A DNA stretch of 46,875 nt from an uncultured Armatimonadia bacterium (GCA_964455745.1 CAYWBK010000002.1:1-46875), one strand, 5' to 3'. Shown: positions 15,848 through 34,600, counted from the stretch's first letter. Translations and numbers: made by a program. The notes: a model not told the origin generated them from the letters alone.

Positions 15848-15982
15848 GTCTCCTCAGAGTGCCGCCTCGTCCTCCCCGACGGGATCCAGCGTCTGATCCG
15901 AGCCTCACCCAACCCCTCATCCTCCTTACCCTTCAGCCCCCGGCAGCTCTCGCCCCGCGGAGTCGAGGGCGGACGCGGCAGC

Positions 15983-18037
15983 CTACCCGGTGTCCGAGAA
16001 GCCCCCCGCAGTGGCCTTCAGGAAGTAACACACCTTGTCATCGAAGTGCAGATGGCTCAGCTCTCGTGGCGGGGGAACGGGGGGAGGTCCCTCGATGATG
16101 ACCGGGCGGATGTAGTCGTCCCCCTTGTGCTCCAGGGCGTAGTGCCACTCCTTCTGCACCCACTCGGACTCCCTGGCCGCGGTAGACCAGAACAGGAACA
16201 TGACGTCGCTCTCGTCGATGTGACGCCACATCTCCTCCTCCCAGCGATCCGCTGGCTCCAGACTCAACACATCCTGCCAGAACTCGATCCCGGCCGGGGA
16301 CAGCATCCGAACGCAGCGGAGCACCTCCTCGCGATCTCTCGACGCGTATGAGATGAACGCAGTCTCGTAGCGTCGGGCCTGACCGACGGGGCCACGCCGG
16401 GCGGGAGGCACGACGCCATCGAGAGGGACCACGGTCAGCCTGAACCTCACCTCGCCGATCGGCACGGATTCCTGAGCGATGAGTACCGTCCCGATATGCG
16501 ACCCCACCCGGGCGTCAGGTGGCACATAGACATCGAAGCTGACCCACTCGACGTGGCCCCGCCACGTGACCTCCCTCACAGGCTGCGGAACGACCAGTTC
16601 GGGCAGGGCAACCTCGAACGCGAGCCTGACCCCTTGGCCGATCCTCGTCCCCAGGGATGTCGCCCCTCGACGCCCTGCCCCCTCATCGAACTCTCTGGCC
16701 TGATCCATCACCAGTTGAGGCAGCTCAGGTAGGTGTGCGTACACCTGGACCATGATGTGGTCCCCGGTTGGTGCCTGCGGCGGAGCGAGGACGGTGCAGT
16801 CGACGTCGTCTGCTGCGTCGTCCGCGGCGTCACCGCAGACTCCCCGTGTCTCGGCTCGTGGAAGGAGGAGCGTCTGATCGGCCCTCGTCTTCTCCCTGGC
16901 TCGGAACGGACCGTCAGAATCGACGATGATGTCTTCATCAGCCCCCTTCGTGACCGGGAACTGACGATCGGAATCGACCATGATGTCTTCATCCGCCCCC
17001 TCCGTGACCGGGAACGGACTGTCAGAATCGAGAGTCGGGCCAGGCCGAGGGCGAGTCATAGATACCGAGTGGAGACAGGTCCCCGTCTCGGCGTCCCACA
17101 CCCTCACTGTACAGTCATGCGAGCCCGAGACGATCCACCGGCCGTCTGGGGAGAACGCCACACTCCTGACGGCGTCCTCGTGCCCAGAGAGGCAGGCGAC
17201 TTGCTCCCTCGCCTCCGCATCCCACACCCGCACCGACCAGTCCTCAGATCCCGAGACGATTCGCCGACCATCCGGCGAGAAGGCCAGTTCCGTAACCGAC
17301 TCCACGTGCCCACGGAGGCAAGCGACCTTCTCCCAAGACGCCGCGTCGCACAACCACAGCGTCCCGTCCCCCTCCCCCGAGACCACCCACCGACCGCCCG
17401 GCGAGAAGGCCACCCACATGACTGGGGAGGGGCGGCCGTAGAGACAGGCAACCTCCCCCCTCGCCTCCACATCCCACACCCGCATCGTCAGATCGAGGGA
17501 GCCCGAGACGATCCACCGACCGTCCGGCGAGAGAGCCACACTCATGATGGCCGACGCGTGCCCGCGGAGGCAGGCGACCTCCTCCCACGACCCCGCGTCC
17601 CACAGCCTCACCGTATGGTCATGCGACCCCGAGACGACCAACCGACCGTCTGGGGAGAACGCCACGCTCGTGACGCCGTCGTCGTGCCCGCAGAGGCAGG
17701 CGACTTGCTTCCTCGTCTCCGGATCCCACACACGCACCGTCGCATCGCGGGAACTGGAAACGATCCACCGACCGTCCGGCGAGAAGGCCACGCCCGTGAC
17801 GGCCCTCGCGTGCCCGAAGAGGCACGCGACCTCTTCGCATGAACCCGCGTCCCACAGCCTCACCAGACCGTCCAGTTGCCCCGAGACCAACCACCGACCG
17901 TTCGGGGAGAATGCCACGGTCCATACCTGATCCACTTCAAGGCGATCCCGGTTCACGTCATCATCCTCCCGAGTGGCCGTGCCATCCCCGATCCGGATGG
18001 GCTGGCTGGCAGCCACTTGGCATAGGTGGCCATCCAC
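15983..18037 (-). CDS. WD40-repeat / beta-sandwich-like / C-terminal TIR-domain protein
   Basis: About eight WD40 blades (…VAFSPDGRWIVSGS.D.TVRVWD… repeated). A 19-aa tandem linker repeat follows (DSDxxFPVTxGADEDIxV). The C-terminus is YETAFISYASRDREEV...FLFWSTAARESEWVQKEW (TIR_2-like). The start is a GTG and is uncertain; another frame upstream (17953..18186) also looks protein-like. Confidence 0.65.
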   Translation of the reverse strand: MDGHLCQVAASQPIRIGDGTATREDDDVNRDRLEVDQVWTVAFSPNGRWLVSGQLDGLVRLWDAGSCEEVACLFGHARAVTGVAFSPDGRWIVSSSRDATVRVWDPETRKQVACLCGHDDGVTSVAFSPDGRLVVSGSHDHTVRLWDAGSWEEVACLRGHASAIMSVALSPDGRWIVSGSLDLTMRVWDVEARGEVACLYGRPSPVMWVAFSPGGRWVVSGEGDGTLWLCDAASWEKVACLRGHVESVTELAFSPDGRRIVSGSEDWSVRVWDAEAREQVACLSGHEDAVRSVAFSPDGRWIVSGSHDCTVRVWDAETGTCLHSVSMTRPRPGPTLDSDSPFPVTEGADEDIMVDSDRQFPVTKGADEDIIVDSDGPFRAREKTRADQTLLLPRAETRGVCGDAADDAADDVDCTVLAPPQAPTGDHIMVQVYAHLPELPQLVMDQAREFDEGAGRRGATSLGTRIGQGVRLAFEVALPELVVPQPVREVTWRGHVEWVSFDVYVPPDARVGSHIGTVLIAQESVPIGEVRFRLTVVPLDGVVPPARRGPVGQARRYETAFISYASRDREEVLRCVRMLSPAGIEFWQDVLSLEPADRWEEEMWRHIDESDVMFLFWSTAARESEWVQKEWHYALEHKGDDYIRPVIIEGPPPVPPPRELSHLHFDDKVCYFLKATAGGFSDTG

Positions 18038-18447
18038 GGCCCATTGTCCTTCACAACCACGAAGTCTACTCTGGGTCTCTCACCCTTACGCTTGTCCTCC
18101 TCAGCCTCCTCAGCAGCGATGTACGGCACCACGATGCACCTCTGCAGTTGGTCCGAGGAGACTGCCCAATGAGGTGGGGCAGGCACTATCTCTGGGAGGA
18201 GGTGCGTCCTCTGGCAACAGGTCTCGTGCTACGGCCACCCGGCGACCGCATGCACGGCCCCTCCGCGTCCGTGTACCGGCGTACGGTGCTGCTCTTGCAG
18301 GCTTCGCCGCCGTCCACGACCTGCTCCTCGCTGACGGCCACTGCGGCTGAACCCCTCCGGGTCCGCCTCTCCCGGGACCCCTGCACCAGCCGCACAGTGC
18401 GGCGATCGCGAAACTGCTTCCTACGCTTCCCTCGAGTGCTCCGGCCG

Positions 18448-18505
18448 CTCTCGCCCGGGAAGTCGAGGGCGGGCTCGGCGGGCAGCAGGTGCGGGCCGTG
18501 GCAGA
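18448..18505 (-). repeat. Copy C of the ~40-70 nt repeat (3' of the PD-(D/E)xK gene, 5' of WD40-TIR)
   Basis: CTCTCGCCCGGGAAGTCGAGGGCGGGCTCGGCGGGCAGCAGGTGCGGGCC aligns with copies A and B in the same orientation. Confidence 0.65.
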
Positions 18506-18545
18506 CCCCTACGCGTCGATGCGTTAGAGCTGTCGGCTGATGCGT

Positions 18546-19112
18546 CTAGGACACCGGCAGTAGGATGTACCGCAGGTTGGTTCCCAGCAGTTCATACCAC
18601 TGGAGCGTGTACTTTTCCCCGGTGAACTCGAGGAGCGGAAGCCCTCCCCACATCACGCCGCCAGTGATAGGAACGCCTTTACGGAAATGCCCGTAGATCG
18701 GGGCGGTCGCATACCCACCGCCCCAGAAGAGGGGGTCATCGGCGATCATCAGGAAGTGGGAAGTCCCGAATCCCCCTTCCATCACTAGTCGCTTGAGGAA
18801 GCGGATGTCCTCGCAGGCGTTGTACATCTGCCGGGGGTGCTGGCCGTTTCGCGGGAACTTGATCTCGATGCAGTGCTTCGTGCCGTCTGGGTCGCAGACG
18901 ATGATGTCTGCCTCTTTCTTTTCAAATGCTGTGGTGTCGCCGTCCACCAAGGCGTCGACGTGACGTTCGAGGTGGACCGTGTGGCCCGGCTCGAGTTCAG
19001 CACGCAGCAGGATTGCCAGCTCGAACTGCACGCTGGCCTCGTTGTAGATCTCGATCGCACCGCCACCCACATTGGTCAGGAACGACTCGATATGCGGGGC
19101 TATGTCGGTCAT
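18546..19112 (-). CDS. PD-(D/E)xK-like nuclease-fold protein, last gene of the Type I R-M operon
   Basis: ATG 19112 has GGGGAGG 7 nt upstream. The motif is EADIIVCDPDG...HCIEIKF (D...ExK). Confidence 0.45.
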   Translation of the reverse strand: MTDIAPHIESFLTNVGGGAIEIYNEASVQFELAILLRAELEPGHTVHLERHVDALVDGDTTAFEKKEADIIVCDPDGTKHCIEIKFPRNGQHPRQMYNACEDIRFLKRLVMEGGFGTSHFLMIADDPLFWGGGYATAPIYGHFRKGVPITGGVMWGGLPLLEFTGEKYTLQWYELLGTNLRYILLPVS

Positions 19113-19240
19113 CTCGTAGCCTCCCCTTATTCGGACTCGCATGTCCGTCCGCCGCCCTGCCTTCCTCACGCCTTCAACAGAAGCCTCCGAGTGCGGAACC
19201 GGCCCGGGGTCGCGGAGCTCCCGACCTCCGAGCCCTGATC

Positions 19241-20728
19241 CTACGCCTCCCCCAACCCATTCGCGATCTGTCTGAACTCGTCGAGTGCCGTCTCCAGGTC
19301 GTCGACGATCTCCTGAACCAGCACGTCGGGCTCGGGCAGGTTGTCGGATTCCTCCAGGCTCTCGTCCCGCAGCCAGAAGATGTCCAGGTTCAGCTTGTCA
19401 CGCTTGGCGAGCTCGTCATAGGTGAAGCACCGCCACCTACCCTCCGGCGTCTCTTCCGACCAGGTCGAGGTCCGCTCATGCCGGTTGTCGGTGTTGTAGC
19501 ACTCGACGAACCCGTCCAGATCAGCTCGCACCATCGGGCTCGTCTTCAGAGTGAAGTGCATGTTGGTCCGCAGGTCATAGACCCACAGCTTGCTGGTCGC
19601 TGGTTCCTCTCGAGCCGGGCGGGCGTCGAAGAACAGCACATTGGCCTTGACGCCTTGGGCATAGAAGATGCCGGTGGGCAGCCGCAGGAGTGTGTGGACG
19701 TCGCAGGCGTGCAGCAGGTTGCGGCGGACGGTCTCGCCAGCACCGCCCTCGAACAGCACGTTGTCGGGCACCACGATCGCACATCGCCCACTGGCCTTGA
19801 GGAGTGACCTGACGTGCTGCAGGAAATTGAGCTGCTTGTTCTTGGTCGTGGTCCAGAAATCGGTGCGTTCGTAGGACGTGTCCTCCCGGTCCAGGCCGCC
19901 CTCTTCGTTCACCACCGAGATGCTGCTCTTCTTGCCGAATGGCGGATTGGTCAGCACCATGCTGACACGCTCGCTCGGCTCCAGGGCGAGGCTGTCTCGG
20001 TACTCGATGGGGCACGGGTCAGCATTGATGCCATGCAGGTACAGGTTCATGATGCACAGGCGGGCCGTGTTCGGCACGATGTCGGTGCCCCTCACGAAGG
20101 CCTCCCGCAGGTGCCGCTTCTGGTCAGTGTCCAGGTCCCGGCCGTACTTGTCAGACACGTACCGGTGTGCCTCCAGTAGGAAGCCACCCGTCCCACAGGC
20201 TGGGTCAAAGACCGTGTCGTCAGGCTTGGGCCGCATGACTTCCACGATGGCCGAGATCAACTCGCGGGGGGTGAAGTACTGACCCGCCCCGCCCGCCACC
20301 TCGGTCATGGTTCGCTTGAGGAGGCCCTCGTAGATGTCGCCCTTCACGTCCGCCTGCATGGCGGACCAGCGTTCGACATCTATGAGCTCGGCGATGAGAC
20401 GCCGCAGGATGGAGGGGTTCTGTATCTCACACCTGGCTCGCCGGAACACCTCGCCGAGCATCCCCGTCTGCGTGCCGAGGTGCTCCAGGATGTGCCGGTA
20501 CTGGATCAGAAGATCCTCGCCATCCACAGCCAACAGGCTCTGCCAGTCGTACCCCGAGGGCACCATCGACGGGCGGCTGTAAGGAGGCTTCGTTTGCTCG
20601 TCCGCCATCTTCAGGAAGAGCAGAAAGGTGATCTGTTCCGTGTAGCCGAGATAGGAGAGCCCATCGTCTCTCAGGACGTGGGCGAAGCTCCAGGCCTTGT
20701 TGACGATCTGTTGGGTGTCGGTTGCCAT
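19241..20728 (-). CDS. hsdM: Type I restriction-modification methyltransferase subunit (HsdM, copy 1)
   Basis: HsdM_N-like N-terminus (KAWSFAHVLRDDG...ITFLLFLKMADE), motif I DPACGTGGFL and motif IV TNPPFG. Confidence 0.85.
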   Translation of the reverse strand: MATDTQQIVNKAWSFAHVLRDDGLSYLGYTEQITFLLFLKMADEQTKPPYSRPSMVPSGYDWQSLLAVDGEDLLIQYRHILEHLGTQTGMLGEVFRRARCEIQNPSILRRLIAELIDVERWSAMQADVKGDIYEGLLKRTMTEVAGGAGQYFTPRELISAIVEVMRPKPDDTVFDPACGTGGFLLEAHRYVSDKYGRDLDTDQKRHLREAFVRGTDIVPNTARLCIMNLYLHGINADPCPIEYRDSLALEPSERVSMVLTNPPFGKKSSISVVNEEGGLDREDTSYERTDFWTTTKNKQLNFLQHVRSLLKASGRCAIVVPDNVLFEGGAGETVRRNLLHACDVHTLLRLPTGIFYAQGVKANVLFFDARPAREEPATSKLWVYDLRTNMHFTLKTSPMVRADLDGFVECYNTDNRHERTSTWSEETPEGRWRCFTYDELAKRDKLNLDIFWLRDESLEESDNLPEPDVLVQEIVDDLETALDEFRQIANGLGEA

Positions 20729-20734
20729 ATTGGT

Positions 20735-21730
20735 TCAGCCCCAGACCCTTGCAGTGCTGCTGTCGTAGTAGTGTACCTGTACCGCGGGCCCACCGAACGC
20801 TTGTCGTTCGGCCGCGATCCGCTCGGCGGCCCCCCGGGTGGTTGCGTTACTTGGCGAGTCGGGATCCCCGTAGAGGCCAACGAACAGCCTATCGAGCCCT
20901 CTGGCCTCGGCGATGGCTGCACGGATATGGGCATCGGCGTCCGAGAGGGAGTGGCCGTAGATGACAAGCGTGCCGTCAGTGTTACGCAGAACCTGCATGC
21001 ACGTGCTCAGATACTCGCTGGCCGCGACCCTTGCGGCCTTCGCACCTGCACTGCCCTCGGAGACGAACAGGGGGACCTCGCCAGCAGCCAGCTCGGCTCG
21101 GATGCTTGTCAGCAGCGGATCCGTGCCGCATCGACGACGCTTCACGGTCCAATCGGCGCTCTCGTATAGGTGCAGAGCACCATGTAGATAGAACATCGTG
21201 GCAGTCGAGAGACCGGCTCGCGAAAAAGTCAACAGACCGGGGGCATCTCCCCAGTTCCCGAAGCTGTCCTCCCTCTGTGGGCCCACCTCGTTTAGCACCC
21301 AGTAGAGCAACAGGTCGTAGTTGGTCGTGAAGACTCTGCCGTAGGGCTCGACGAACGCAGCACAGATCTCCATCCGGTCATGGTCTATCGGGGCCCAAGT
21401 GTCCGGGTGTACCACCGTGAGTGCGGCGAGGAACGCCTCTCGTAGCTGGTCCACGCACTGCGAAACAAAGGGAAGCTGGACGCCGAAATGCTGGGCGAGC
21501 CACGCTGCTTCGTTGAACTCCTGCATCACGCCCTCAATGTTGGCCGTGCAGAGGTGGTCAAACACATCAACAAGCTGTTGGTCGATGGCACCGACCTGGG
21601 AGGCCACGTCTACCAGGCTGGTGTAACCGAACCGGGTATCGCAGGCGACGCTGAAACCGTTGCCCAGCAGGAGATGTGGGCAGGTGTTGCCTGCCTGCTG
21701 CATTACGCAGTCGTAGCTGATGACATCCAT
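20735..21730 (-). CDS. SIR2-superfamily-like protein (DUF4917-type) inserted between hsdS and hsdM
   Basis: ATG 21730 has GGGAGG upstream. Motifs are LLLGNGFS, FTTNYDLLLYW and YLHGALHL (the GxGxS / TTNYD / LHG pattern of SIR2-like proteins). Its stop lies 6 nt before the hsdM start. Confidence 0.5.
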   Translation of the reverse strand: MDVISYDCVMQQAGNTCPHLLLGNGFSVACDTRFGYTSLVDVASQVGAIDQQLVDVFDHLCTANIEGVMQEFNEAAWLAQHFGVQLPFVSQCVDQLREAFLAALTVVHPDTWAPIDHDRMEICAAFVEPYGRVFTTNYDLLLYWVLNEVGPQREDSFGNWGDAPGLLTFSRAGLSTATMFYLHGALHLYESADWTVKRRRCGTDPLLTSIRAELAAGEVPLFVSEGSAGAKAARVAASEYLSTCMQVLRNTDGTLVIYGHSLSDADAHIRAAIAEARGLDRLFVGLYGDPDSPSNATTRGAAERIAAERQAFGGPAVQVHYYDSSTARVWG

Positions 21731-21798
21731 TGCCTGGCCTCCCGACGGGATGCACTCTGGCACGTCAACCGGCTCTATCCCTACGGCTGCAACGTGGC

Positions 21799-23322
21799 TT
21801 AGGGACGCCTCTCCTCCCTGATCATCTCCAGCAGCACGCTGGCAGGCTCGTCGTTGGGGTCCTGAGGCACGAGGTTGCCCTCGAAAGCACGCTTCAGCAC
21901 CGCCTGCCGCAGGCGGGTGCAACGCGTCAGTCCGGCGTCAACCTGCCTCTCCATCGCGTCCAGCATGGAGAGCCGTCGCTCCACCTCGGCAACGATCTCG
22001 GTCTGCTCGGCGAGAGGGGGGAGTGGAACGGGCATTGGCCGGATGTCATCGAGGTTGAAGTTTGCTCTGGCGACATCCGCTTTGGTGTCTGTGATGTGCG
22101 ACTGGACTAACGGTGACAATATGAATGCCACCAAGAGGCGGTTGAGCATCCCTCCGCTCACCAACCTGATGATCGCGACGGCTTGGTTCAGGTTTGCTCC
22201 TGCGATTTCATCAGTGGCAACAGCAGACCGCCCAACGGACGCTCCCACGAGGTTCAGCAGAACATCCCCGGCCTCGATGATCGAGTTCCGGTGTGTCTCG
22301 TTGAACATGGGGGAGAGGAACGCCAACTCAGACAAGTCGAGGCTGCCCCACCGCACGTTCTGGCTACGCACGAAGGCAACGCCGTCGTCTGTGTACTCGT
22401 AGCCCTGCCAGTTGGGAGAGGTGCCCTTTGTCACCAGCGTCGTGAACTGCTCCACGCTCGCCCACGCCCAACCATCCGGCAACTCCGGCAGATCGCTCGT
22501 GTCCGGTGCGGCAGGAGACTTGTACTTCGCCTGCCAGCCCGCCGGGGGCTTCTGCCCCTTCTCGGCGAATCTGGCCAGTTGCTCCTCTTCCCACTTCCGG
22601 CGGCGTTCCTGCAGGGTGCGGTCCAGCAGCACCGACGCCGGTTCGGTGCCGGGGTGCTTGGCCCGCCACTCCTCGGTCAGCCTGCCCCCGGCCGCCGCCT
22701 TCAGCACCGAGGCCCGGTAACGCTTCAGGTTCGCCCGTACCCGCACCAACGCGGCAGTCGCGGCATCGAGCTTCGAGAACAGCTCGTCGAGCGTCGCCAC
22801 GATGCGGGCCTGCTCGTTGGGCGGCGGCACGGGGAATTCGACCTCGGAGAGTCTGCCCGCACCCAGATGGGCGATGTTGGTCGTGATCGTGCCGATCGCC
22901 CGGAAGCGGCCGCTGTGCATGTAGTACCGGAAGACGGCAAGGGCGTAGCTGGCCGATACACAGGGTCCAGCCCTGAAGCGGACGAGCGTGTTGGTGAAGC
23001 ACGCCCCTGGCACCTCATCGCGGTACATGGCCGGACGTCCGAGCAGTTCGGGGCTCTGCCCCTCATTGAGCAGGATGTCGCCTACCGCGAGCCGGTAGGT
23101 CTCGAACTCGGCGTCCGTGAAGTTCATCTGCATGACGTCCGAGGTATCGATCCGATCCTCGAACACGTTGGCAACCCGTAGGTACGGACGCATGTCCGGT
23201 CCCTCATGGTGCTTGGGGCTACGCTGCCGCCCGAGCTGGACCCGACCCACTTCGCCGATCGTGGACCAGCACCAACCCGGCGGCAACGCTCGAAGGCCAG
23301 TCGGGGAGCTACTATCGCTCAT
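21799..23322 (-). CDS. hsdS: Type I R-M specificity subunit (HsdS, copy 1)
   Basis: Two target-recognition-type halves are separated by a long helical spacer (…RIVATLDELFSKLDAATAAL… and …EQTEIVAEVERRLSMLDAME…). Its ATG overlaps the hsdR stop (ATGA). Confidence 0.8.
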   Translation of the reverse strand: MSDSSSPTGLRALPPGWCWSTIGEVGRVQLGRQRSPKHHEGPDMRPYLRVANVFEDRIDTSDVMQMNFTDAEFETYRLAVGDILLNEGQSPELLGRPAMYRDEVPGACFTNTLVRFRAGPCVSASYALAVFRYYMHSGRFRAIGTITTNIAHLGAGRLSEVEFPVPPPNEQARIVATLDELFSKLDAATAALVRVRANLKRYRASVLKAAAGGRLTEEWRAKHPGTEPASVLLDRTLQERRRKWEEEQLARFAEKGQKPPAGWQAKYKSPAAPDTSDLPELPDGWAWASVEQFTTLVTKGTSPNWQGYEYTDDGVAFVRSQNVRWGSLDLSELAFLSPMFNETHRNSIIEAGDVLLNLVGASVGRSAVATDEIAGANLNQAVAIIRLVSGGMLNRLLVAFILSPLVQSHITDTKADVARANFNLDDIRPMPVPLPPLAEQTEIVAEVERRLSMLDAMERQVDAGLTRCTRLRQAVLKRAFEGNLVPQDPNDEPASVLLEMIREERRP

Positions 23323-26099
23323 GCCGCCAGCCTCTCATTCAGCTCTGCGAGGATGGGCTGCAGTCGCTCGCCGAACAGCTCATACACCCGGCCCAGTCCG
23401 CCCATCTGTGCGAAGGGAACGTCGTCGAAATCCTGCCGCTCGACGCGAAGGCTCGCCGCGATGTGGTCGCGAATCGCGTCCAGCCACTGCTGCTGCTCCG
23501 GGGTGAACCGGGCACCACCCGCCTCCTGCTCCATAAGCCACTCCTGGTAGCGGTGCTCGACTACCGCCGCCAGGGGCAACAGCGGCTCATCGGGGGTGAT
23601 GGCGTGACGTACCAAGGCGACTAGGTCGGCGATCTGCTTGCCTCCAGGCCCCTTCACCTTCCGGGGCTCTACAGCCGCATAGGCTGCCCAGAGCTGCTCC
23701 GGCTCAGACTGCAGGGGCGGCCGCCTGATGGCTGCGGCCAGGTCCTTGATGTGTCGGAAACGCAAGCCCTCCTGGTATGGACGGCTGTACAGCAGGCGGA
23801 TGCCCTCCAGCTCATCCTTGTTGTCCTCGATGAACTGGCGGAAGCTGGTGATGAGTCCTTTGGCCCTTTCGAGGGTCTTCGGGTCTCCTCCCGCGTAGAG
23901 GAGCTTGTCCTGCGTCACCTCGTCGATGGTCTGTTCCAGCAGTTGCCGGATCTCCAGAATGCGATCCCGTAGCTTCGGGTCTAGGAAGGGCCGTAGGGCC
24001 TGCACGACCATCGCCCTGTTGAGATGGCGGACCTCTTCGCCGGTGGGTTCCCGCCCGATATCCGCGAAGGCCTCAGCAGCCCGCCGCCACTGCTCGTCCG
24101 GGTCCACGCTACGGACGAGGTCAGCAGCCAGAGCCTTGGCATCCTTGCCTTCGGCAACCAGGGACACCTGTGCACGCTGCTCGTCATCCATTTGGCGATC
24201 CAGGCGAATCAGCCGTGAGGCCAGCGTCGATGCGAGACTCGACGTTGCCACCCCTCGTGCCGCCAACTGCAGCAGCTTCTCCAGCGGCACGGTGGGCTGC
24301 CGATCGAGAGGCTTGGTCTCGGTCTTGTCACGGTCACAGACGCCAACCGCGTCGACGATGACGAAGTGGGTCTTCGCCCTGGGGTGGTCCATGACGTGGG
24401 CCATCTCGTCCGCGTCGCAGATCCGTACACCTCGGCCCTTCATCTGCTCGAAGTAGCCCGCCGAGTTGACGTTCCGCATGAACAGTAGGCACTCCAGCGG
24501 CTTCACGTCGGTGCCGGTGGCGATCATGTCCACGGTAACGGCGATTCGTGGAAAGTAGGCGTTGCGGAACTCATTCAGGAGGACGTCCGGCTTCTTCCCA
24601 GTGGTCTTGTAGGTGATCTTCTGACAGAAGTCATTGCCTTTGCCGAACTCCTCTCGGAAGATGCGGGTGATGCCCTCGGCGTGCGAGTCGTCCTTGGCGA
24701 AGACAAGCGTCTTGGGCACCTCGCTCCTGCCCGGGAAGATGGCGGAGCCCGAGGGGCCAGCAGTGAAGAGACGATCTCGGAAGGTGCGGACGACGAGACG
24801 TATCTGGTCCCTGGCGACGACGTCGCGGTCGAGTTGGGCGGCCGTGTAGGTGAGATCGTCGTCCAGTTCTTCATATCGGACGGCACGAGTCCGGCGATCA
24901 CGCCTCGGCACCCGGAACCCCGGGGCCTTCCTCAGCGTCGCCCCCGTCTGGGTGACCTCAGTGTCGATGCGGTAGACGTCGAAGGTCACGTTGACGCCGT
25001 CGGCCACGGCGTCCGCGTGTCCGTATTCCATGACCAGGTTGTTGTCGAAGAACCCGATCGTCTGCTTGGTGGGGGTAGCGGTCAAGCCGATGACGAACGC
25101 GTCGAAGTAGTCCAGCACCTGTCGCCACTGGTTGTAGATGCTACGATGACACTCATCCACGACGATGACATCGAAGGTCTCGACCGGGATGTTCGGATTG
25201 TAGGTGACGGGCTCCGGCTCCCTGTGAATGGCGGCATCGGCCTCGAACCACGACGTCTCATCGTTCTCCTCCGCGTACTCCTCGTGCCCCTGCAGCATCG
25301 AGAACAGCCTCTGAACGGTGGAGATGCACACCCGGGCAGTCGGGTTCAGCACGTTCGACCGCAGGTGCTGGATGACGAACTCCTCGCCAAACGGCCTGCT
25401 GGCCTCCGGGCTGCGGTAGTCCGCGAACCGCTCACGAGCCTGCTTCCCGAGGTTGTTCCGATCTACAAGGAACAACACGCGGCGTGCACCAGCGTGCTTG
25501 ACGAGCCTGTAGACTGTGGCACATGCGACTCGAGTCTTCCCCGAGCCGGTCGCCATCTGGATCAGTGACTTCGGGCGGTTCTCGGCGAGGGACGCCTCCA
25601 GCTTGTGGACGGCCTCGACCTGTACCCGCCACAAGCCGTGAGCGTTGAGCTCGGGGAGCTCCCTCAGCCCCTGGCGGAATTGGCGGTCCAACTGGGCGAG
25701 ACGCCGCAGCTCTTCCGGACGATGGAATGCGAAGACCCGTCGGCTTCGGGGGTCGGGATCCAGGCGGTTGGTGAACTGCGTCTCCACACCCGTGCTCTCG
25801 TAGTGGAACGGCAGCGGGCGGGCATAGACGGGGATGTCCTCGGCGAGGCCATCGAGATACTTCAGCGACTGGACTTCGACTCCGGCGAGGGTGTGACCCT
25901 TCGACTTGGCCTCAACGGCCCCCAGGGCCTTGCCGTCGACGTAGAGCAGGTAGTCGGCGTGACCGGTGGCCAGCGGGAACTCGCGGACGGCGATGCCGGT
26001 CGCGGCCGAGATGTGCATCTGCTGGAGGTCCTGGACGACCCAGCCCGCCGCCGCGAGTTGCTCGTCAATCTCCAGCCTGGCTTCGTCTTCCGGCTTCAT
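23319..26099 (-). CDS. hsdR: Type I restriction enzyme R subunit (HsdR) with an EcoEI-type C-terminal domain
   Basis: N-terminus is EARLEIDEQLAAAGW. Helicase motifs are MATGSGKT and VVDECHRS. The C-terminal region resembles the EcoEI R C-terminal domain. Start at 26099 (AGGGGG upstream) is preferred; 26150 or 26255 are possible. Confidence 0.85.
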   Translation of the reverse strand: MKPEDEARLEIDEQLAAAGWVVQDLQQMHISAATGIAVREFPLATGHADYLLYVDGKALGAVEAKSKGHTLAGVEVQSLKYLDGLAEDIPVYARPLPFHYESTGVETQFTNRLDPDPRSRRVFAFHRPEELRRLAQLDRQFRQGLRELPELNAHGLWRVQVEAVHKLEASLAENRPKSLIQMATGSGKTRVACATVYRLVKHAGARRVLFLVDRNNLGKQARERFADYRSPEASRPFGEEFVIQHLRSNVLNPTARVCISTVQRLFSMLQGHEEYAEENDETSWFEADAAIHREPEPVTYNPNIPVETFDVIVVDECHRSIYNQWRQVLDYFDAFVIGLTATPTKQTIGFFDNNLVMEYGHADAVADGVNVTFDVYRIDTEVTQTGATLRKAPGFRVPRRDRRTRAVRYEELDDDLTYTAAQLDRDVVARDQIRLVVRTFRDRLFTAGPSGSAIFPGRSEVPKTLVFAKDDSHAEGITRIFREEFGKGNDFCQKITYKTTGKKPDVLLNEFRNAYFPRIAVTVDMIATGTDVKPLECLLFMRNVNSAGYFEQMKGRGVRICDADEMAHVMDHPRAKTHFVIVDAVGVCDRDKTETKPLDRQPTVPLEKLLQLAARGVATSSLASTLASRLIRLDRQMDDEQRAQVSLVAEGKDAKALAADLVRSVDPDEQWRRAAEAFADIGREPTGEEVRHLNRAMVVQALRPFLDPKLRDRILEIRQLLEQTIDEVTQDKLLYAGGDPKTLERAKGLITSFRQFIEDNKDELEGIRLLYSRPYQEGLRFRHIKDLAAAIRRPPLQSEPEQLWAAYAAVEPRKVKGPGGKQIADLVALVRHAITPDEPLLPLAAVVEHRYQEWLMEQEAGGARFTPEQQQWLDAIRDHIAASLRVERQDFDDVPFAQMGGLGRVYELFGERLQPILAELNERLAA

Positions 26100-26206
26100 G
26101 CGGCACCCCCTGGGGCACTCTCCAGTCTGTCGGTGCTGGGCTGACGACATGTTCGCTCTCTGCCCCGCCGTGTCCTCCGCTGGTTCACAGATCGGCAACA
26201 ATCGCA

Positions 26207-27469
26207 TCACGGCATCCTTCGGCGGGGAATCGGCGACACATCCGAGGCCGAGCATGGCCTTCTGGCCGAAGCCAACACCCTACATCGTCCCGAGAGCAGA
26301 TCCTCGATCGCCTCCCGTCTCAGCACCTCCAACGCAGCGATGCTCTTCCGACTGGTGCGTTCCACCTCGTCCACGGCCTCGAGGTCTCGAGCGATGCTGA
26401 TCTGCTCTTCGATCGTGGCCGGGATGGGGATCGGGAGATCGCCCAAGGCACCGTGGTCGATGGTGGTCATCCTGGACGCCTTCGCCGTCGACCGCAGGTG
26501 CCGCTCGGCCGCCTCCGTCTGGCAGTAGTGCCACAGGTAGTGTGGCGAGACCCTCTGGACGTCGGGGCAGAACCTGGCGAGGTGGCAGTCGAAGAGGATC
26601 GGCTGTTCGGTGGCCCTCACCAGGATCGAGCGACCGATGCCGTCGGGGATGATCGACGACCGCAGGAACAGGCAATCGCCGGATCCGACGCCGAACCTCT
26701 CGACCTCCGCATCGGTGGCCTCGACCCTCGCCAGGGCTCCGACGTCGAGACCATCCCACGAGAACACGTCCGGTGGCCGGATGATGGGAACCCCGCCCCG
26801 GTCGGCGTCCACCGCACTCGGCCTGAAGACCCCGTTGCGAAGGGGGATCGCAGCGAGGTCCTTCAGCCTGGCGGTGTGCCACACTTCGCCGACAGGGCGG
26901 AACGCTGCCCAGGCCATCGCTCGTGCGACCTCTCGTGATGCTACGATGGTTCGCTCCGTCTCCTCGATCGCCTCATCGATGCTCACCAGCAGGCCGCAGA
27001 TCCAGACCCGTTCGTCCTCGGGTGGTACGAAAATGGGACAGCGTCGCAGTTCGTGCCATGAGGTGCGGGGCATGTCGATGCCCCCGCTCTTCGCGATGGC
27101 GAACCCGATCACGTTCCGACTCTGGCACACGTAGAGCAGGAACTCCGGTTCCAGGTCGTCGTTCGGCACCAGCACCAGGATGTCGGCCGAGCAGCTCCCA
27201 TCGCGGTCGGCGAGGTTCACCTTCCCGAACCGTGGCCGCAGGCCGCTGAACAGGACGTCCCCCCTGTGGCACCTCGCCTTGGCCCCCGAGAGGGCTGGCG
27301 ACTCAGAGACCCGGGCGTACCTCCTGTCGGGCACCATGTCCTCGATCCCGACGTGAGCCCCCATCGCCGGAGCCCTGGTGGCGGGACGCGGGCGACACAG
27401 GTCTCCGAGGGTTCCCACCTTCCACCCCGGGGGCGTCTCACGGGCATGCTCAGGGAGTTGGATCGACAC
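26207..27469 (-). CDS. hsdS: Type I R-M specificity subunit (HsdS, copy 2)
   Basis: PPGWKVGTLGDL start, two TRD-like halves and the conserved ...EEQISIARDLEAVDE...LLSGRCRV end. It overlaps the hsdM2 stop by 20 nt. Confidence 0.75.
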   Translation of the reverse strand: MSIQLPEHARETPPGWKVGTLGDLCRPRPATRAPAMGAHVGIEDMVPDRRYARVSESPALSGAKARCHRGDVLFSGLRPRFGKVNLADRDGSCSADILVLVPNDDLEPEFLLYVCQSRNVIGFAIAKSGGIDMPRTSWHELRRCPIFVPPEDERVWICGLLVSIDEAIEETERTIVASREVARAMAWAAFRPVGEVWHTARLKDLAAIPLRNGVFRPSAVDADRGGVPIIRPPDVFSWDGLDVGALARVEATDAEVERFGVGSGDCLFLRSSIIPDGIGRSILVRATEQPILFDCHLARFCPDVQRVSPHYLWHYCQTEAAERHLRSTAKASRMTTIDHGALGDLPIPIPATIEEQISIARDLEAVDEVERTSRKSIAALEVLRREAIEDLLSGRCRVLASARRPCSASDVSPIPRRRMP

Positions 27470-28958
27470 GCGTCAGCTCCCCCATGCGAGATCGAAGCGT
27501 CGCCATCGCCCGCTCCCGGGCGGTCTCGGCTTCGTCGAGGGCCGCCATCGCGGCGGCCAGGTCCGCCGATTTCTTCGGATCGAAGGTGTCGACGTACCTC
27601 GGAACGCTCAGGATGAACCCCTCGGCGGCGATCTCGTCCATCGCCACCAGGCGACAGTAGCGATCCTCGTCCCGCCCCGACTCGAAGGCCTCCACGATCC
27701 GATCCACGTCCTCCGGCCGCAGGCGATTCCGTCTCCGCACCCGTTCGTAGCCACCGGAGGCGTCGATGAACAGCACTCTGCCCTGCCGTCGCTCCGGCTT
27801 GCGGCGGTTGAAGATGAGCAGGCACGCTGGGATGGAGTTGCCGTGGAAGATGTCCGCTGGCAGCCCGATCACCGCCTCGATGATGTCGTCCTCCAGGATG
27901 GCTCGTCTGATCCGGCCTTCCGATCTCCCCCGGTAGAGCACGCCCTGACTGCACACGACTCCCGCCCGTCCGGACTCGTTCATGCTGGCGATGATGTGCT
28001 GGAGGTAGGCGAAGTCGCCGTTCCCTTTCGGCGGCACGCCGTACGTGAACCGCCCGAAGGGATCATCGCTCAGCTCATCGCATCCCCAGAACTTGTCGGA
28101 GAAGGGGAAGTTGGCGATGACGACGTCGAAGGTCTGCAGTGTCCCGTCCCCTGTCAGGAACTGGGGATCGGTGAGCGTGGAGGCCCCGCCTCGGATCTCG
28201 GCCTCCAGGCCGTGCATCAGCATGTTCATCCTCGCGATTGCCCACGTGCTCCAGTTACGCTCCTGGCCGAACAGCCTCATGGCACGGGCTCCGTCGGACC
28301 CGCTTTGCCGCCGCAAGTGCTCGGCACCGTAGATGAGCATCCCGCCCGAGCCACAGGTGGGGTCGTAGATCGTTGCGTTGGGTGCGGGCTCGAGGATGCG
28401 GATCAGCACCTGGACGATCTCACGGGGGGTGTAGAACTCGCAGCCCCTGGCTCCCGAGTCGTCGGCGAACCTGCCGATGAGGTGCTCGTATCCCCTCCGC
28501 AGGACGTCCGCGTCGACGTTGGCGTCGGAGAGGTCGTGCTTGTCGAACTCGAGTACGAGAGCCCGTAGCACCTCGCCCCCGATGCGGGGCTTCTGGACGC
28601 CGTCGTCGTTCACGGTGGCGTTCCAACTCACGGAGCGGAGGACGGCGTCGAGTTGGGGGTTGGCGGAGCCGACGACGGACATCACATCGTCGAGTCGCCG
28701 CCCGAGCCGATCGGGAGGCGTGTCGGAGAGGTCCTGCCAGGAGCATCCCGGCGGGATCTCGATGCGGCGTGGGCCGTTCTGGCTGCGGGTGGCCCTCCGC
28801 CGTCCGGCCGTCTGGGCTTCGAACTGCGATTGGTCGGCGAGCCGCTTGTAGAACACCAGAGTCAAGATGTGGCTCCTGAACTCCTCCGAATCGATGGAGC
28901 CCCGAAGCACGTCGGCACAACTCCACAGGTGGGTCTCCAGTTGTTGCTGGGTCAGCAT
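27450..28958 (-). CDS. hsdM: Type I R-M methyltransferase subunit (HsdM, copy 2; different subfamily from copy 1)
   Basis: ATG 28958 has GAGGGGA upstream. N-terminus is LWSCADVLRGSIDSEEFRSHILTLVFYKRLAD. Motif I is DPTCGSGGML. Motif IV reads ANFPFS rather than NPPF. Confidence 0.8.
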   Translation of the reverse strand: MLTQQQLETHLWSCADVLRGSIDSEEFRSHILTLVFYKRLADQSQFEAQTAGRRRATRSQNGPRRIEIPPGCSWQDLSDTPPDRLGRRLDDVMSVVGSANPQLDAVLRSVSWNATVNDDGVQKPRIGGEVLRALVLEFDKHDLSDANVDADVLRRGYEHLIGRFADDSGARGCEFYTPREIVQVLIRILEPAPNATIYDPTCGSGGMLIYGAEHLRRQSGSDGARAMRLFGQERNWSTWAIARMNMLMHGLEAEIRGGASTLTDPQFLTGDGTLQTFDVVIANFPFSDKFWGCDELSDDPFGRFTYGVPPKGNGDFAYLQHIIASMNESGRAGVVCSQGVLYRGRSEGRIRRAILEDDIIEAVIGLPADIFHGNSIPACLLIFNRRKPERRQGRVLFIDASGGYERVRRRNRLRPEDVDRIVEAFESGRDEDRYCRLVAMDEIAAEGFILSVPRYVDTFDPKKSADLAAAMAALDEAETARERAMATLRSRMGELTRVDPTP

Positions 28959-29156: not shown

Positions 29157-30872
29157 ATGCCCAGCCTCGTCCTCGACACCCTCAGAGTCCTCCTCCTCGA
29201 CCCTCGCTCCGACCCGTTGGATGTGGGGCTGGCCCTGCACGCCCTGACGCCGGAGGATCTGGCGGGGATAGGGTGCGGATCGCTCAAGGAGCTGTTGGGC
29301 CAAGTATTGCAGAAGAACGGGAAGCCCGAGTACTCCACCGTCATGCGATGGGTTCGAGCCGCCAGCGTGCTCTCCGGCTCCGACGATCCAAGGCGGGAGT
29401 GGGGCATCAGCAGGCTGGCGGAGGTAGCACGATGTTCTGACTCCGGGTCCCGCCGGAAGCTGCTACAGGCCAGGGGAAAGACCATCGGCAGGACGACGGT
29501 GCGGGAACTGCGTGAGGCGGTGGCCGTCCACGGAGCCGAGAGGCGTGACAGCCCCGACGCCGACGAGCCGCACTCCATCCTCGAGCGTGCCATCGAGATC
29601 GCCCTGCGGCACGAGCGGCCGGACGCAGCGGTCGAGATCGAGGTGCAGAGGAGCAAGGGCAAGCGGCCGACCTTCACGGTAGCCGCCAGGGGCGGTGCCA
29701 CCGACGCCGACATGGCCGAGGCACTGGGGACGGCCTCACGGGTCATGTCGGCCATCGCCACGTCCAAGGCCGCATGGCGGAAGGGAGGCCCGAAGCCCAT
29801 CCGGGTCCCCAAGCCCATGCCGGTCGACGACATCCTCGCCCTGCCGCCCAGCCAGCTCGAGGCCAGGTGGCTGGATCCCGACGCGGTGCAGATCACAAAG
29901 GAGGGCACGCCGATCCTGCACCTGCCGGTGGAGCGGTGTGAGCAGACCAACCACCGACTGGTGTGGCCGGAGGGCAACGTCAAGGTCCGGGACGTGTTCG
30001 GCATCATCGATTCCATCAGCCAGGGCTGCCTGCGGATCGCCACCGGTTGGCCTGGCACCCACGAGCCCTGTTTCACGCTCGATGGCAGCCGAACGACCGG
30101 GTGCTACGCCAACCATACCAAATGGGCGGGGATCAGCAGGAGCGAGCACGGTAGCTTCGACGTCATCAGCAACGGCCTCGTGAACCAGCTCATGAAGCTC
30201 CGGCTGCCACTCGATGGTAGCCCCGCCCTCGACCGCCAGACCCGGAGGATGTGGCGGGTGGACGCGGAATCCACCGACGGTGCCCTCTCGGTGTCGCTCG
30301 GAGTCTTCCAGGCTTGGGCGGAGGCGAACCCCGACCACCGCCTCATGACGATCTGCAGCCACCAGTTCAGTCCCTCGGACGAGATGCTCGCGTGGCTTTC
30401 CGCCCTGAGGAATGCCTGGACGGGGCACACGGTGGCGGCAGCCGGACTGTCCCCGGAGGAGGTGGACATGCGGTTCGCCTCCATCCGCCGCTTCCTGGAC
30501 TGGGGCGTCGCCTGTGCCGTGTGGATCGTCACCCACCCCACCTGGGACAACCAGAGCGTGCTCGATCGGGTCCTCGAACTGGTGCCGCCCGAGGCCATCA
30601 TCGAGGCCCCCTACCGTTTCCGAACCCTCGACCAGGCCCTGCCGGTGCTGCACGTCAACCGCCTCGGTGCCTGCAGCGATTATCGCCTCACCCGCTACGG
30701 CGTGGCCTGCCACGTCCGCAGGGACGTCGACCCCCAGACCGGCGAGATCGTCCCCACGCTCGTGGATGCCTCCGACAGCGAGGTGACGCACGCCGCACAC
30801 TCCAAGTGTGGCGGTGGCTGCGAGCTGCTGTGCGGGCTGAACGCCCTCGACCGTCGCAACGCCGCCCGCTGA
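29157..30872 (+). CDS. Protein with a HTH/ParB-like N-terminal region and a C-terminal Cys-rich domain of unknown function (paralogous to the middle of the giant MTase)
   Basis: ATG 29157 has GGAG upstream and the gene is divergent from hsdM2. The C-terminal ~330 aa align by eye with residues encoded at ~33.18-34.2 kb (LKLRLP.DG.P, DG.LS.SLG..QAW.E.NP, FSPSDEML.W, VW..T.P.WDN.S...R.LELVPP..IIEAP, L.L..LGAC.D). Confidence 0.55.
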   Translation: MPSLVLDTLRVLLLDPRSDPLDVGLALHALTPEDLAGIGCGSLKELLGQVLQKNGKPEYSTVMRWVRAASVLSGSDDPRREWGISRLAEVARCSDSGSRRKLLQARGKTIGRTTVRELREAVAVHGAERRDSPDADEPHSILERAIEIALRHERPDAAVEIEVQRSKGKRPTFTVAARGGATDADMAEALGTASRVMSAIATSKAAWRKGGPKPIRVPKPMPVDDILALPPSQLEARWLDPDAVQITKEGTPILHLPVERCEQTNHRLVWPEGNVKVRDVFGIIDSISQGCLRIATGWPGTHEPCFTLDGSRTTGCYANHTKWAGISRSEHGSFDVISNGLVNQLMKLRLPLDGSPALDRQTRRMWRVDAESTDGALSVSLGVFQAWAEANPDHRLMTICSHQFSPSDEMLAWLSALRNAWTGHTVAAAGLSPEEVDMRFASIRRFLDWGVACAVWIVTHPTWDNQSVLDRVLELVPPEAIIEAPYRFRTLDQALPVLHVNRLGACSDYRLTRYGVACHVRRDVDPQTGEIVPTLVDASDSEVTHAAHSKCGGGCELLCGLNALDRRNAAR

Positions 30873-30983: not shown

Positions 30984-31301
30984 TGCGGCCTCCTGAGCAT
31001 CCCGTTGACGTCGTCCCATCCATCCCGCCGACCGCCCCGATGGTGACGGTGCCACCGCTCCTCCCTGGCTCCGATGAGGCCCCATCACGCCTTCCCGCCG
31101 CCCTTCCGCCGACCTCGTGAACTCGTCCATCGTCAGTTCCCGTGCCGCGGTTCCCGACGCCTCCATGCCTCCTGGCTCCCGGTTCGCCGACGGGACTCCG
31201 TCCGTCCTGTCACCACTTCGGAGATGCCCAGCTACGGCCTTCCACGACCGTTCTCCTGTGGTTCGGACATGGCATTTTGTCCGCAGATGCCGTCCGGTTC
31301 C

Positions 31302-31597
31302 AACCTGCCTTGCCGGGCCGCCGACCCAGTGCCACCGGGGCTGGAGGTGGTTCCGATTAGCCCGAAGCCGAGGCCCGAATCCAGCCCCATCGCAGCACCG
31401 ATCATGCCATCGTATGGGCACATGTCGTTCGCCCATTCCGACCTGCCTTGCCGGGCCACCCTCCGAGTGCCACCAGCGTCGGAGGTGGTTCACATGAACC
31501 CAGAACCGACGACGCAGGCCACGCCAGTTCATGCGGCATGTGCAGAACGACACTTGCATCCCGACTTGCCTTGCCCCGCTCCCGCCCCGATGCCACA
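31302..31597 (+). promoter_or_regulatory. Island leader motif, copies 2-4 (three tandem units in front of the giant MTase gene)
   Basis: Copies are at 31302-31336, 31440-31474 and 31563-31597. Each is followed by GGAGGTG(G). Copies 3 and 4 are then followed by ATG (31494, 31617). Confidence 0.5.
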
Positions 31598-31616
31598 GGC
31601 GTCGGAGGTGATCCAA

Positions 31617-34600
31617 ATGGATCCCAAAGACAGCGAAGAGATGGGTCAGACGGACGTGCAGAGTCGTGACGAAGAGCAGGTCGTGCGGGCTTACGACCAG
31701 CCGGGAATCAGGCCGAGCACCTGGCGGGTCGTGCCCAACCTGATCGCTCGCCAGTACCGTGCCCTGTTGGAGTCGATCATAGTGTACGGGGTGCAGGTGC
31801 CCATCGTGATCGATGAGCACGGCACGATCATCGACGGCTATCATCGCTGGCGTGCCGCCGTGTGGGCAAAGCGAAGGGACATCCCGTTCACGATCGTCCC
31901 CGGCCTCTCCGAGGCGGGAAAGCGAGAGCTGGCACGCCGTCTCAACCTCGCCCGCAGGCACCCCGGCCCCAGCCAGAGGCGGCAGATCGTAGAGGAGCAG
32001 CTCCGGGAGCGTCCGGATCTGAGCAGCCGAGCAGTGGGACGCCTGTTGGGCGTCGATCACAAGACGGCGTCCAAGGCCCGCAAGCGGCTCGAGGCCGCAG
32101 GCGAGATCCCGGTCGTCACTACCGTCACCGACGAGCACGGGAAGCAGAAGCAGCCAGTCCAGAAGAGCCGGGCCATCCACTGCCGCAGCATCGCCGAAGC
32201 CCAGAGGGCGATCCGGGATGCGACGGAGTTCGGGGATGACCCCATCCCCACTTCCGCCAACGACGCCCGATCGATGGCCAAGGCGGCGGCGAAGCACAAG
32301 AAGGATCGTCTGGATGACGAGGATCTGGCTCGGTACCTCGCCGAGCGGTACTCGGGCGAACTCGAGATCGACAGCGTCCGACGAGAGGACATCCGGAAGC
32401 TCGACCTGCCGGAGGGCAGCGTCGACCTCATCTATACCGACCCTCAGTACCACGAGGATCATCTCGAAACGTACGAAGCCCTCGCCGAGCTGGCGAGCCG
32501 GGTGCTGAAGCCGGGCTGCCTGCTCTTCGTCTACTGCGGCAAGCAGTTTCTGCCGGATGTCATCCAGCGACTCGGCAGCCATCTCGACTACGTGTGGACG
32601 ATGGCCGACGTGTTCGAGACCGGCGACCACGTGGTCGACAGCGTCCGCGTCAAGGAGAAATACCGGACGATCCTCGTCTACAAGCGGCCCGGCGAGACCC
32701 CCAAGCGGGTTCTCGTCCCCGACGCCGTCCACAGCCCCAAGCAGAAGGACGACCACGACTGGCAGAACTCCTGCGAGGCGGCTCGCACGTACATCGAGGC
32801 ATACACCCGTCCCGGCGACGTGGTACTGGATCCCTTCGTGGGCGGCGGCACGGTCCCGGCCGTATGCGTCGAACTCAACCGACACTTCCTGGCCTTCGAC
32901 GCCGATCCGAACGCCGTGAAGCGGACGCTGCGACGACTCGAGAGGATGAGCGGCGACGCGGGCGACGATGTGGGCGACCCAGAGGGCGACGAGGATGACC
33001 CCGACGACGGCGGCCCCGCGGGGACCCCTCCGCCCGACTACGGCCTCCCCGAGTTCGACAGCCCGATCTCGCCGTTCGCCTGGGGTGGCGAGACACCGGC
33101 CGAGGTCGTCGCCGCACGGAACGCCCTGGTCTGCCCCAGCGACGGGGGAACCGGCGACTACGAGCACTTAACGATGGACGAGATCGACGCCCTGCCCGCC
33201 GGACCGCTCACGGTCTCGTGGCGGTCGCCCCAGCTCGTCGACTTCCACAAGGCCGACCGATGGGTGGCGAGCATCCCCGTGAAGCGGGCGAACCTGAAGA
33301 CCTTCTTCCACGCTGAGGGCAGCATCAAGTCCGAGGGGGCGGTGCCCGTCCTCAACGGCCTCTCGAACGGCTGCGGGCGGCGGCTCACGGGCCACGCCAA
33401 CTGCGACCAGCGGTGCTTTCAGGGGCCCGGCAAGTGCTCAGGGTGTTACGCCGATGTCAATCAGTACAGCATCCGCGAGGAAAACCGAGCCAAGGGCTGG
33501 GGCATCGTCCACAACGGCTTCATCACCACCCCGGACGACACGGTCAACGACTGCCTCAAGCTGCGGCTCCCCGGCGATGGGAAGCCCGGCCACTTGACCG
33601 ACCTGATGGCGAACTCCGGCCCCTTCGACCCGCCGATGGTCAGGACCGACTGCGTCTCCAGCGACGGCTCGCTGAGCTTGTCGCTGGGACTGATCCAGGC
33701 GTGGTCGGAGCAGAACCCCAGCGTGCCGTTCTACACGATCAGTTCGGACTACTTCTCGCCCAGCGACGAGATGCTGCGGTGGGCGGCATCGATCCCGACG
33801 CTCTGGGTGGGACATACCCTCAGCCCGTGGTTCTCTGAGATCGAAAACGAGACCCGCCTGGCGGCCATCCGCCGACACCTGGACTTCGGCGTGCCGACCG
33901 TGGTGTGGATCACGACCTCCCCCGACTGGGACAACTGGTCGATCGCCGAGCGGGCACTGGAACTCGTCCCTCCGACCCACATCATCGAGGCCCCACTGCA
34001 GACTTCCAAGCTCAGCAAGCACCTGCCCCTGCTGCACCTGAATCCGCTCGGAGCCTGCGGCGACATGCGGTACGACGGCGATGGACGCCTGGCGACCTTC
34101 GTCGAATGCAAGGGCAAGCAGGTCGCTCACGTGGTGGGCGAGGATGGGCTGGAGCGAGCCAAGGGTCACGTCAGCCCCCGCTGCCGGGGCTGCCGGGTCA
34201 AGTGCGGCTACTACGCCGTCCGTGGGATGGTGGAGGCTGCTGCAGCCGAAGCACCCGTGTGGGTCCCACAGGCGGCCGACGCTGGCCTGATGGGGGGTGC
34301 CGCCCCCCTCGTACAGCCCCTCCCAGGGGCCCATACGCTCGAGATCCGGGACCAGGTCGTCGTGACCGGTGACTGCCTGCGGGTGCTCTCCGAGTATCCC
34401 GACGGCTCGATCTCCGTTGTCGTGACGTCGCCTCCTTACAACCTGAACAAGGACTACGGTTCGGTTGGGGACGATCGTCCGATGGCCGAGTACCTGGACT
34501 GGATGGAAGAGGTATCGGCCGAACTCGCACGAGTCCTTTCGCCGGACGGCTCTCTCTTTCTCAACCTGGGGATCGTCCCCTCCCGGCCGTGGCTCGCGGA

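Follow-up and report, generated by a model that had tools for sequence, protein, structure and literature searches.

Can a single restriction subunit serve two different pairs of methylase and specificity subunits? This question is raised by a tightly packed array of seven genes, most of them for Type I restriction-modification (R-M) subunits, on a stretch of DNA from an uncultured Armatimonadia bacterium (GCA_964455745.1 CAYWBK010000002.1:1-46875), which is referred to below, at its whole length of 46,875 nucleotides (nt), as the window. An initial annotation made from the sequence alone had read the array as one composite defence unit, in which two hsdM-hsdS pairs share one hsdR and into which a SIR2-like gene and a gene for a PD-(D/E)xK-like protein have been built. 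The picture that emerged from our analysis is a different one. We consider it rather probable that the array is a mosaic, consisting of a complete hsdR-hsdS1-hsdM1 system, a DUF4917 gene inserted into it and a methylase-only hsdM2-hsdS2 pair, all residing in a mobile defence island integrated at a tRNA-Asn gene, and we regard it as unlikely that the one HsdR is shared by both M-S pairs.

Seven genes on one strand

The list of open reading frames (ORFs) and profile searches against the Pfam, PADLOC and NCBIfam libraries confirmed the positions, the common orientation and the family assignments of the seven genes, which are, in the direction of reading:

27450..28958, minus strand: hsdM2, Type I methylase of the EcoR124-like, HSDR_N-partnered lineage, intact (N6_Mtase, 8e-95, plus HsdM_N)
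26207..27469, minus strand: hsdS2, specificity subunit with two target-recognition domains (TRDs) (two Methylase_S stretches; PDLC03100, 1.4e-43)
23319..26099, minus strand: hsdR, translocase/nuclease subunit of the EcoKI/EcoAI-like lineage (ResIII plus EcoEI_R_C; NF008521, 1.8e-113)
21799..23322, minus strand: hsdS1, specificity subunit (PDLC03109, 5e-115)
20735..21730, minus strand: DUF4917 SIR2-like gene (PF16263, 1e-48; weak SIR2_2; PADLOC PDC-S21, 7e-82)
19241..20728, minus strand: hsdM1, EcoKI-like Type I methylase (PDLC03026, 1.4e-183)
18546..19112, minus strand: gene 7, small PD-(D/E)xK-like protein of 188 amino acids (aa), no match in the family libraries

The junctions were likewise as first described: hsdR and hsdS1 are joined by an ATGA overlap, the stop codon of the DUF4917 gene lies 6 nt before the ATG of hsdM1, and hsdM2 and hsdS2 overlap by 20 nt, given a GTG start for hsdS2. 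One gene caller picked a shorter form of HsdS2 (385 aa); we favour the GTG start because the relatives of this protein comprise 416-437 aa and their genes overlap hsdM. A gap of 107 nt separates hsdS2 from hsdR. Promoter-like and terminator-like sites were not commoner across the array than in shuffled sequence, and co-transcription is therefore neither supported nor excluded. The exact DUF4917 protein recurs on a 50.5-kb metagenome contig from the Joint Genome Institute, where the gene order is identical, and a second sample yielded it on a short contig.

HsdR belongs with HsdS1 and HsdM1

The translations of hsdR and hsdM1 contain the motifs GSGKT, DECH and D...EAK in the former and DPACGTGG and NPPF in the latter. 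The hsdR-hsdS1-hsdM1 set has the make-up of a Type I system, with a nuclease motif and a DEAD-type motor in R, the AdoMet motif I and motif IV in M and two TRDs in S. A genome scan with HsdR returned three loci only, one of them a fragment, and the two full-length relatives originate from Deinococcus pimensis (49% identical) and from an Absconditabacterales metagenome-assembled genome (57%). At both of these loci (L003 and L004), an HsdS1-like gene and then an HsdM1-like gene come after hsdR on the same strand, without a DUF4917 gene. The adjacent methylases are 52-54% identical to HsdM1, whereas HsdM2 reaches only 23-26% with them. In D. pimensis, the hsdS and hsdM products (507 and 495 aa) equal those of the window in length, with an identity of 36% between the HsdS protein and HsdS1, and the two genes abut. 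In a sequence search of the PDB, HsdM1 matched 2okc (3e-120) and, over its full length, the M subunit of EcoKI (3e-93), and HsdR gave no match to the HsdR subunit of EcoR124I. To judge from these sequence comparisons, HsdR is the cognate partner of HsdS1 and HsdM1. The system stands outside classical Types IA and IB: its NCBIfam scores of 381 and 183 bits compare with cut-offs of 729 and 550, and the best genomic HsdR relatives reach only 49-57% identity, where the in silico criterion for the classical families is about 90%.

At the Absconditabacterales locus (9998-19879, genetic code 25), the closest relative of HsdR is split into two reading frames. An unannotated gene for 175 aa and a gene for 416 aa with a hydrophobic, probably membrane-spanning stretch lie between hsdR and hsdS, and a gene for 735 aa follows hsdM; going by their sequences, we read the 175-aa product as NYN-like and the 735-aa product as GmrSD-like. 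These extra genes differ from those in the window, and one R-S-M scaffold therefore hosts different inserts.

The second pair is of another lineage

HsdM1 and HsdM2 had been assigned to different subfamilies, and this holds: they are 23% identical, and the PDB search that led to EcoKI M for HsdM1 led to 7vru (1e-99) and EcoR124II M (1e-50) for HsdM2, with a further match to 3lkd, while EcoKI M was reached only at 2e-20 and within the catalytic core. HsdS1 and HsdS2, which had been called unrelated in their recognition halves, match only weakly. The closest relatives of HsdM2 (65-66% identical) are encoded in the order hsdM-hsdS-(optional insert)-HTH/Peptidase_M78-DUF3368-hsdR-YgjP at all resolved loci. 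The HsdR proteins of these loci comprise 976-978 aa with HSDR_N, ResIII and T1R_D3-like domains, and the HsdR of the window can barely be aligned with them (E 9e-4). HsdS2 falls into the same length class as the HsdS proteins of these loci. Within the window, we found no second hsdR and no remnant of the hsdR cognate to HsdM2 or of the HTH/M78, DUF3368 and YgjP genes, in line with the earlier statement that only one translocase/nuclease subunit is present. In close relatives of hsdM2, the slot after hsdS holds genes for a SAVED-domain protein or for an unannotated 330-aa protein (L101, 11809-12897; L102, 9259-10251). Accessory genes appear to use this position as a general landing site.

The partnership between methylase and nuclease follows lineage. 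M1-like methylases occur with an EcoEI_R_C-type HsdR at seven distinct loci, M2-like methylases with an HSDR_N-type HsdR at five, and cross pairs are absent from these 12 distinct loci, of which several entered the set through DUF4917 and not at random. The families of Type I enzymes were originally defined by subunit complementation, which takes place within a family only (PMC5399793). On account of this restriction and of the co-variation of M with R, sharing of HsdR across the two lineages is unlikely, and the proposed seven-gene unit with one HsdR for two M-S pairs could not be upheld. The array also departs from the shared-HsdR arrangement of the Sau1 type in the low identity of its two methylases and in the different types of their R partners.

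Motif I of HsdM2 is intact and its motif IV reads NFPF. We suspected decay from this odd motif and rejected the idea, as NFPF is normal for the subfamily: of 121 sequences in the alignment (counting that of the window), 54 carry it, including those of the eight closest relatives, and several of these eight belong to complete systems. HsdM2 looks functional. Since Type I enzymes can methylate without HsdR (PMC11411939), M2S2 most likely acts as a methylase only, and the pair is probably a methylase-only module carried on the backbone of the element.

A DUF4917 protein between hsdS1 and hsdM1

The gene that separates hsdS1 from hsdM1 encodes a single-domain protein of 331 aa which scores 166.9 bits with PF16263, against a cut-off of 28, and matches PDC-S21 over its full length (7.4e-82). 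A search for the family yielded 2751 matches, with 40% identity for the best one other than the protein itself, and the motifs GNGFS, TTNYD and HG as well as N137 and H183 are invariant in 28 homologues. A PDB profile search with the DUF4917 alignment produced marginal sequence matches only (E ~0.5), so that a fold comparison was needed. With the predicted model (predicted local distance difference test, pLDDT, 91), Foldseek retrieved the SIR2 protein of SIR2-HerA (E 5e-9), ThsA (7e-5) and then human SIRT2; TTNYD...HG aligns with the SIR2 of SIR2-HerA. The protein unites a SIR2 fold of the defence type, with the SIR2 of SIR2-HerA as its nearest match, with the motifs in which characterised SIR2 enzymes carry their catalytic Asn and His.

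That this gene splits hsdS from hsdM is a real insertion event, as stated from the outset, because hsdS and hsdM abut in D. pimensis and both relatives of the system are devoid of a SIR2-like gene. Its GC content at third codon positions (GC3) is 0.74 compared with 0.82-0.85 for the flanking hsd genes. We linked the family with its genetic environment in 80 metagenomic loci retrieved by its profile, 60 of which have a flank of 1.5 kb or more on one side. DUF4917 is encoded inside a Type I operon and on the same strand in 23 of the 80 (23 of the 60 with enough flank), mostly directly after hsdS. The gene orders are M-S-SIR-R, R-M-S-SIR and, at locus L007, R-S-SIR-(Fic)-M as in the window, and the embedding operons include both methylase lineages. 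Embedded and solitary copies are interleaved by similarity, and a phylogenetic separation of the two was rejected as not significant (nearest-neighbour test, p = 0.11). It follows that R-M operons both gain and lose this gene.

The initial annotation had suggested that restriction could be combined with an NAD- or nucleotide-directed abortive arm. A combination with an NAD-directed arm is plausible, because the insertion of the SIR2-like gene into Type I operons is real and recurrent; the extension to a seven-gene unit around a shared HsdR is not supported. The candidates termed PDC in PADLOC go back to genes nested within BREX, DISARM and Type I systems (bioRxiv 10.1101/2024.01.29.577857), and the association of DUF4917 with Type I systems is therefore already catalogued. 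A search of a paper library for DUF4917 or PDC-S21 in defence retrieved no experimental paper. We infer that the DUF4917 protein consumes NAD+ as a defence effector and is co-expressed with its R-M neighbours.

Gene 7 is probably separate cargo

Gene 7 had been described as a nuclease-fold gene trailing the composite module. It belongs to an uncharacterised family for which a word search returned 12 and a profile search 1185 homologues. The predicted model has a pLDDT of 94 and its fold matches are weak, with low template modeling scores, and nearly all to PD-(D/E)xK nucleases (best E 0.019 in the PDB and 6.8e-5 in a viral library). In the 12 homologues, E25, E31, D69 and E83-x-K85 are invariant, and the D69...E83-x-K85 signature together with the fold matches supports a tentative assignment as a PD-(D/E)xK-like protein. 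The role as a part of the module found no such backing, since in the two cases in which the surroundings of a homologue were read, neither gene lies inside a Type I operon: one is located among small uncharacterised genes, and the other belongs to a defence island that also has an EcoEI_R_C-type hsdR, about 6 kb away and on the opposite strand. Gene 7 is probably cargo in its own right, outside the R-M system. A 187-aa ORF after hsdM in D. pimensis, tried as its counterpart, is not a homologue.

Many members of the gene 7 family, as seen in the relatives P0257, P0265, P0290 and P0384, are extended at the N-terminus by 100-180 aa; DUF7669, DUF7662 and a PP-binding domain are found in these extensions, and one member of 696 aa additionally has PDDEXK_1. 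A Pfam scan of these extensions provided no functional lead.

A mobile defence island and its likely history

The array is embedded in the following surroundings:

40561-42246: large serine recombinase, island backbone; the gene ends inside tRNA-Asn
36441-37967: D5_N/DUF5906 primase, island backbone
31074-36263, plus strand: fusion of N6/N4 and C5 methylases, 1729 aa, two N6/N4 regions; the gene call on the contig adds a faint ParB_N match
29157-30872, plus strand: unannotated 571-aa neighbour that resembles an internal stretch (33171-34229) of the 1729-aa ORF
15983-18037, minus strand: WD40-TIR protein, seven WD40 repeats and, at the C-terminus, TIR_2 (1.6e-21), just downstream of gene 7
145-2640, 6316-7347 and 14009-15004, minus strand: AAA_13 ATPase (PDC-S06, 6e-66) and two Mrr_cat proteins (PDC-S02)
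42205-46875, minus strand: 3' part of an rRNA operon with 16S (cut by the window end), tRNA-Ile, tRNA-Ala, 23S, 5S and tRNA-Asn

The island appears to have been integrated at tRNA-Asn because the gene for the serine recombinase ends inside this tRNA gene, the last one of the rRNA operon. The GC content drops from about 0.65 to 0.55 at the same point, and the island also contains a tyrosine integrase. In PADLOC, the WD40-TIR protein weakly resembles ThsB and SAVED-TIR proteins, and one of the two Mrr_cat proteins has a receiver-like N-terminus.

Parts of this backbone accompany relatives of hsdM2 elsewhere. Three loci with such relatives (L091, L102 and L104) share the divergent ParB/N6N4/C5 methylase genes with the window, in L102 and L104 in the form of ParB and C5 methylases. 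In L091, both the 1729-aa ORF and its 571-aa neighbour are conserved beside hsdM2-like genes, the former as a ParB/N6N4/C5 methylase and the latter as a 558-aa protein (44% identical), and the D5 primase is 61% identical to that of the window; a D5 primase is also present in L086. The GC3 of the backbone genes and of hsdM2 and hsdS2 is 0.84-0.88. Direct or inverted repeats bordering the inserted hsdR-hsdS1-DUF4917-hsdM1 cassette were searched for, and the search returned only chance-level short repeats and the expected internal repeat of hsdS. The simplest history is that hsdM2-hsdS2 arrived with the element and that the cassette took the place of this pair's hsdR block, or that the block was lost beside it.

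Weighing the explanations

For the mosaic, function can be outlined by extrapolation from known Type I enzymes. M1(2)S1 would methylate one bipartite site, and HsdR would join this complex, translocate DNA and cut it where it is unmethylated. The DUF4917 protein would form a second layer of defence, either acting alone or switched on when restriction fails. M2S2 would write a second N6-methyladenine motif without using the neighbouring HsdR, its genes having been inherited with the large multi-methylase, the D5-type primase and the serine recombinase of the backbone.

Several points weigh against the mosaic. The co-variation of M and R was deduced from just the dozen loci described above, with the DUF4917-based sampling of several of them, and the scan for HsdR relatives found just two full-length genomic ones. 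The order hsdM2-hsdS2-hsdR resembles that of a canonical M-S-R operon, and close packing, shared direction and a gap of only 107 nt between hsdS2 and hsdR make co-expression of all seven genes possible. Finally, the sole experimental paper on a DUF4917 protein describes SliP of Campylobacter jejuni as a secreted deacetylase and not as a defence NADase (PMC10421069).

The hsd genes keep the same roles in a rather unlikely alternative, according to which M1S1 and HsdR hold the DUF4917 protein silent and free it to deplete NAD+ once an anti-restriction protein of a phage blocks the enzyme. Such a guardian has a precedent in PrrC, an effector embedded in a Type I system that senses the inhibition of restriction (PMC12707154), and it would suit both the defence-type SIR2 fold and the location of the gene directly after hsdS, often overlapping it, in at least two unrelated Type I lineages and three gene orders. 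PrrC, however, is almost exclusively embedded (bioRxiv 10.1101/2024.01.29.577857), while DUF4917 is embedded in only 23 of the 60 assessable loci, and the interleaving of embedded and solitary copies argues that the protein can function in the absence of an R-M partner. Independence from HsdR is known for other embedded genes, among them those for TgvAB (PMC11411939). Reasoning by analogy, an autonomous DUF4917 protein resembling TgvAB in this respect is more likely than a strict guardian of the PrrC kind. A more doubtful version has the NAD+-depleting guardian dock on the HsdS/HsdM core and fire when restriction is blocked or overwhelmed, which would explain its position directly after hsdS in unrelated Type I lineages; bolder still, M2S2 devoid of its own R might feed the sensor or borrow HsdR across families.

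As to the second pair, hsdM2-hsdS2 might be a dead remnant that neither methylates nor has any other function, left behind when a second system replaced its hsdR. The downstream block, present in all close relatives, is wholly missing, and no promoter-like site was detected. Yet both reading frames have full length, motif I and the subfamily-typical motif IV are intact, two recognition domains are present, the GC3 equals that of the backbone, and a related element (L091) likewise combines this pair with the methylase-rich backbone. Type I enzymes, as noted, do not require HsdR to methylate, and we consider a dead remnant improbable.

Least probable by our estimate is the integrated system originally proposed, with one HsdR for M1S1 and M2S2 as in Sau1 (PMC5399793) and with the SIR2-like and nuclease-fold genes as built-in abortive arms, for which the intact genes, the packing on one strand with small gaps and overlaps, the common M-S-R order and the documented Sau1 case of one hsdR with two hsdMS pairs can be cited, and against which stand the single family of the Sau1 pairs as opposed to the two divergent lineages here with their different R partners, the confinement of complementation to families, the poor alignment of HsdR with the nuclease usually found beside HsdM2, the missing linkage of gene 7 homologues to R-M genes in the two cases read and the fact that about 60% of DUF4917 genes stand alone.

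The locus is most likely an ordinary kind of mosaic and not a new composite machine. As such, it is a clean natural example of how defence islands are assembled: on a mobile element, a complete Type I system with an embedded candidate effector seems to have displaced the nuclease block of the Type I system next to it. The comparison strengthens the case for DUF4917 (PDC-S21) as a defence candidate linked to Type I systems, and the locus cautions that tight, co-directional gene arrays need not be single machines.

Comparison with known systems

The hsdR-hsdS1-hsdM1 genes are most readily compared with EcoKI/EcoAI-like systems: the whole of HsdM1 can be aligned with EcoKI M, and HsdR matches NF008521 and the EcoAI-family model. 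The order is R-S-M here and R-M-S there, and scores far below the NCBIfam equivalog cut-offs mark the system as a distant relative outside classical IA/IB.

Staphylococcus aureus Sau1 also has one hsdR and two hsdM-hsdS pairs per genome. The two pairs of Sau1 are of a single family and lie dispersed over the genome, whereas those of the window are adjacent and of different lineages.

The best structural matches of the DUF4917 protein, the SIR2 of SIR2-HerA/Nezha and ThsA of Thoeris, have TTNYD...HG in common with it. Unlike these, it has neither a HerA partner nor a SLOG domain, and sequence similarity is marginal. The lack of the SLOG domain and the marginal PADLOC matches to SIR2 also set the locus apart from Thoeris; a gene for the WD40-TIR protein is located about 2.7 kb from the SIR2-like gene, with gene 7 and hsdM1 in between.

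The closest parallel in gene arrangement is provided by Type I operons with embedded genes, i.e., PrrC in EcoprrI, TgvAB in VPI-2 of Vibrio cholerae and the 'guilt-by-embedding' set of PADLOC, which includes PDC-S21. In these, too, a foreign gene lies between hsd genes on the same strand. The embedded protein of the window differs in having a SIR2 fold instead of being an anticodon nuclease or a GmrSD-type enzyme, and DUF4917 differs from PrrC in that only about 40% of its loci have it embedded.

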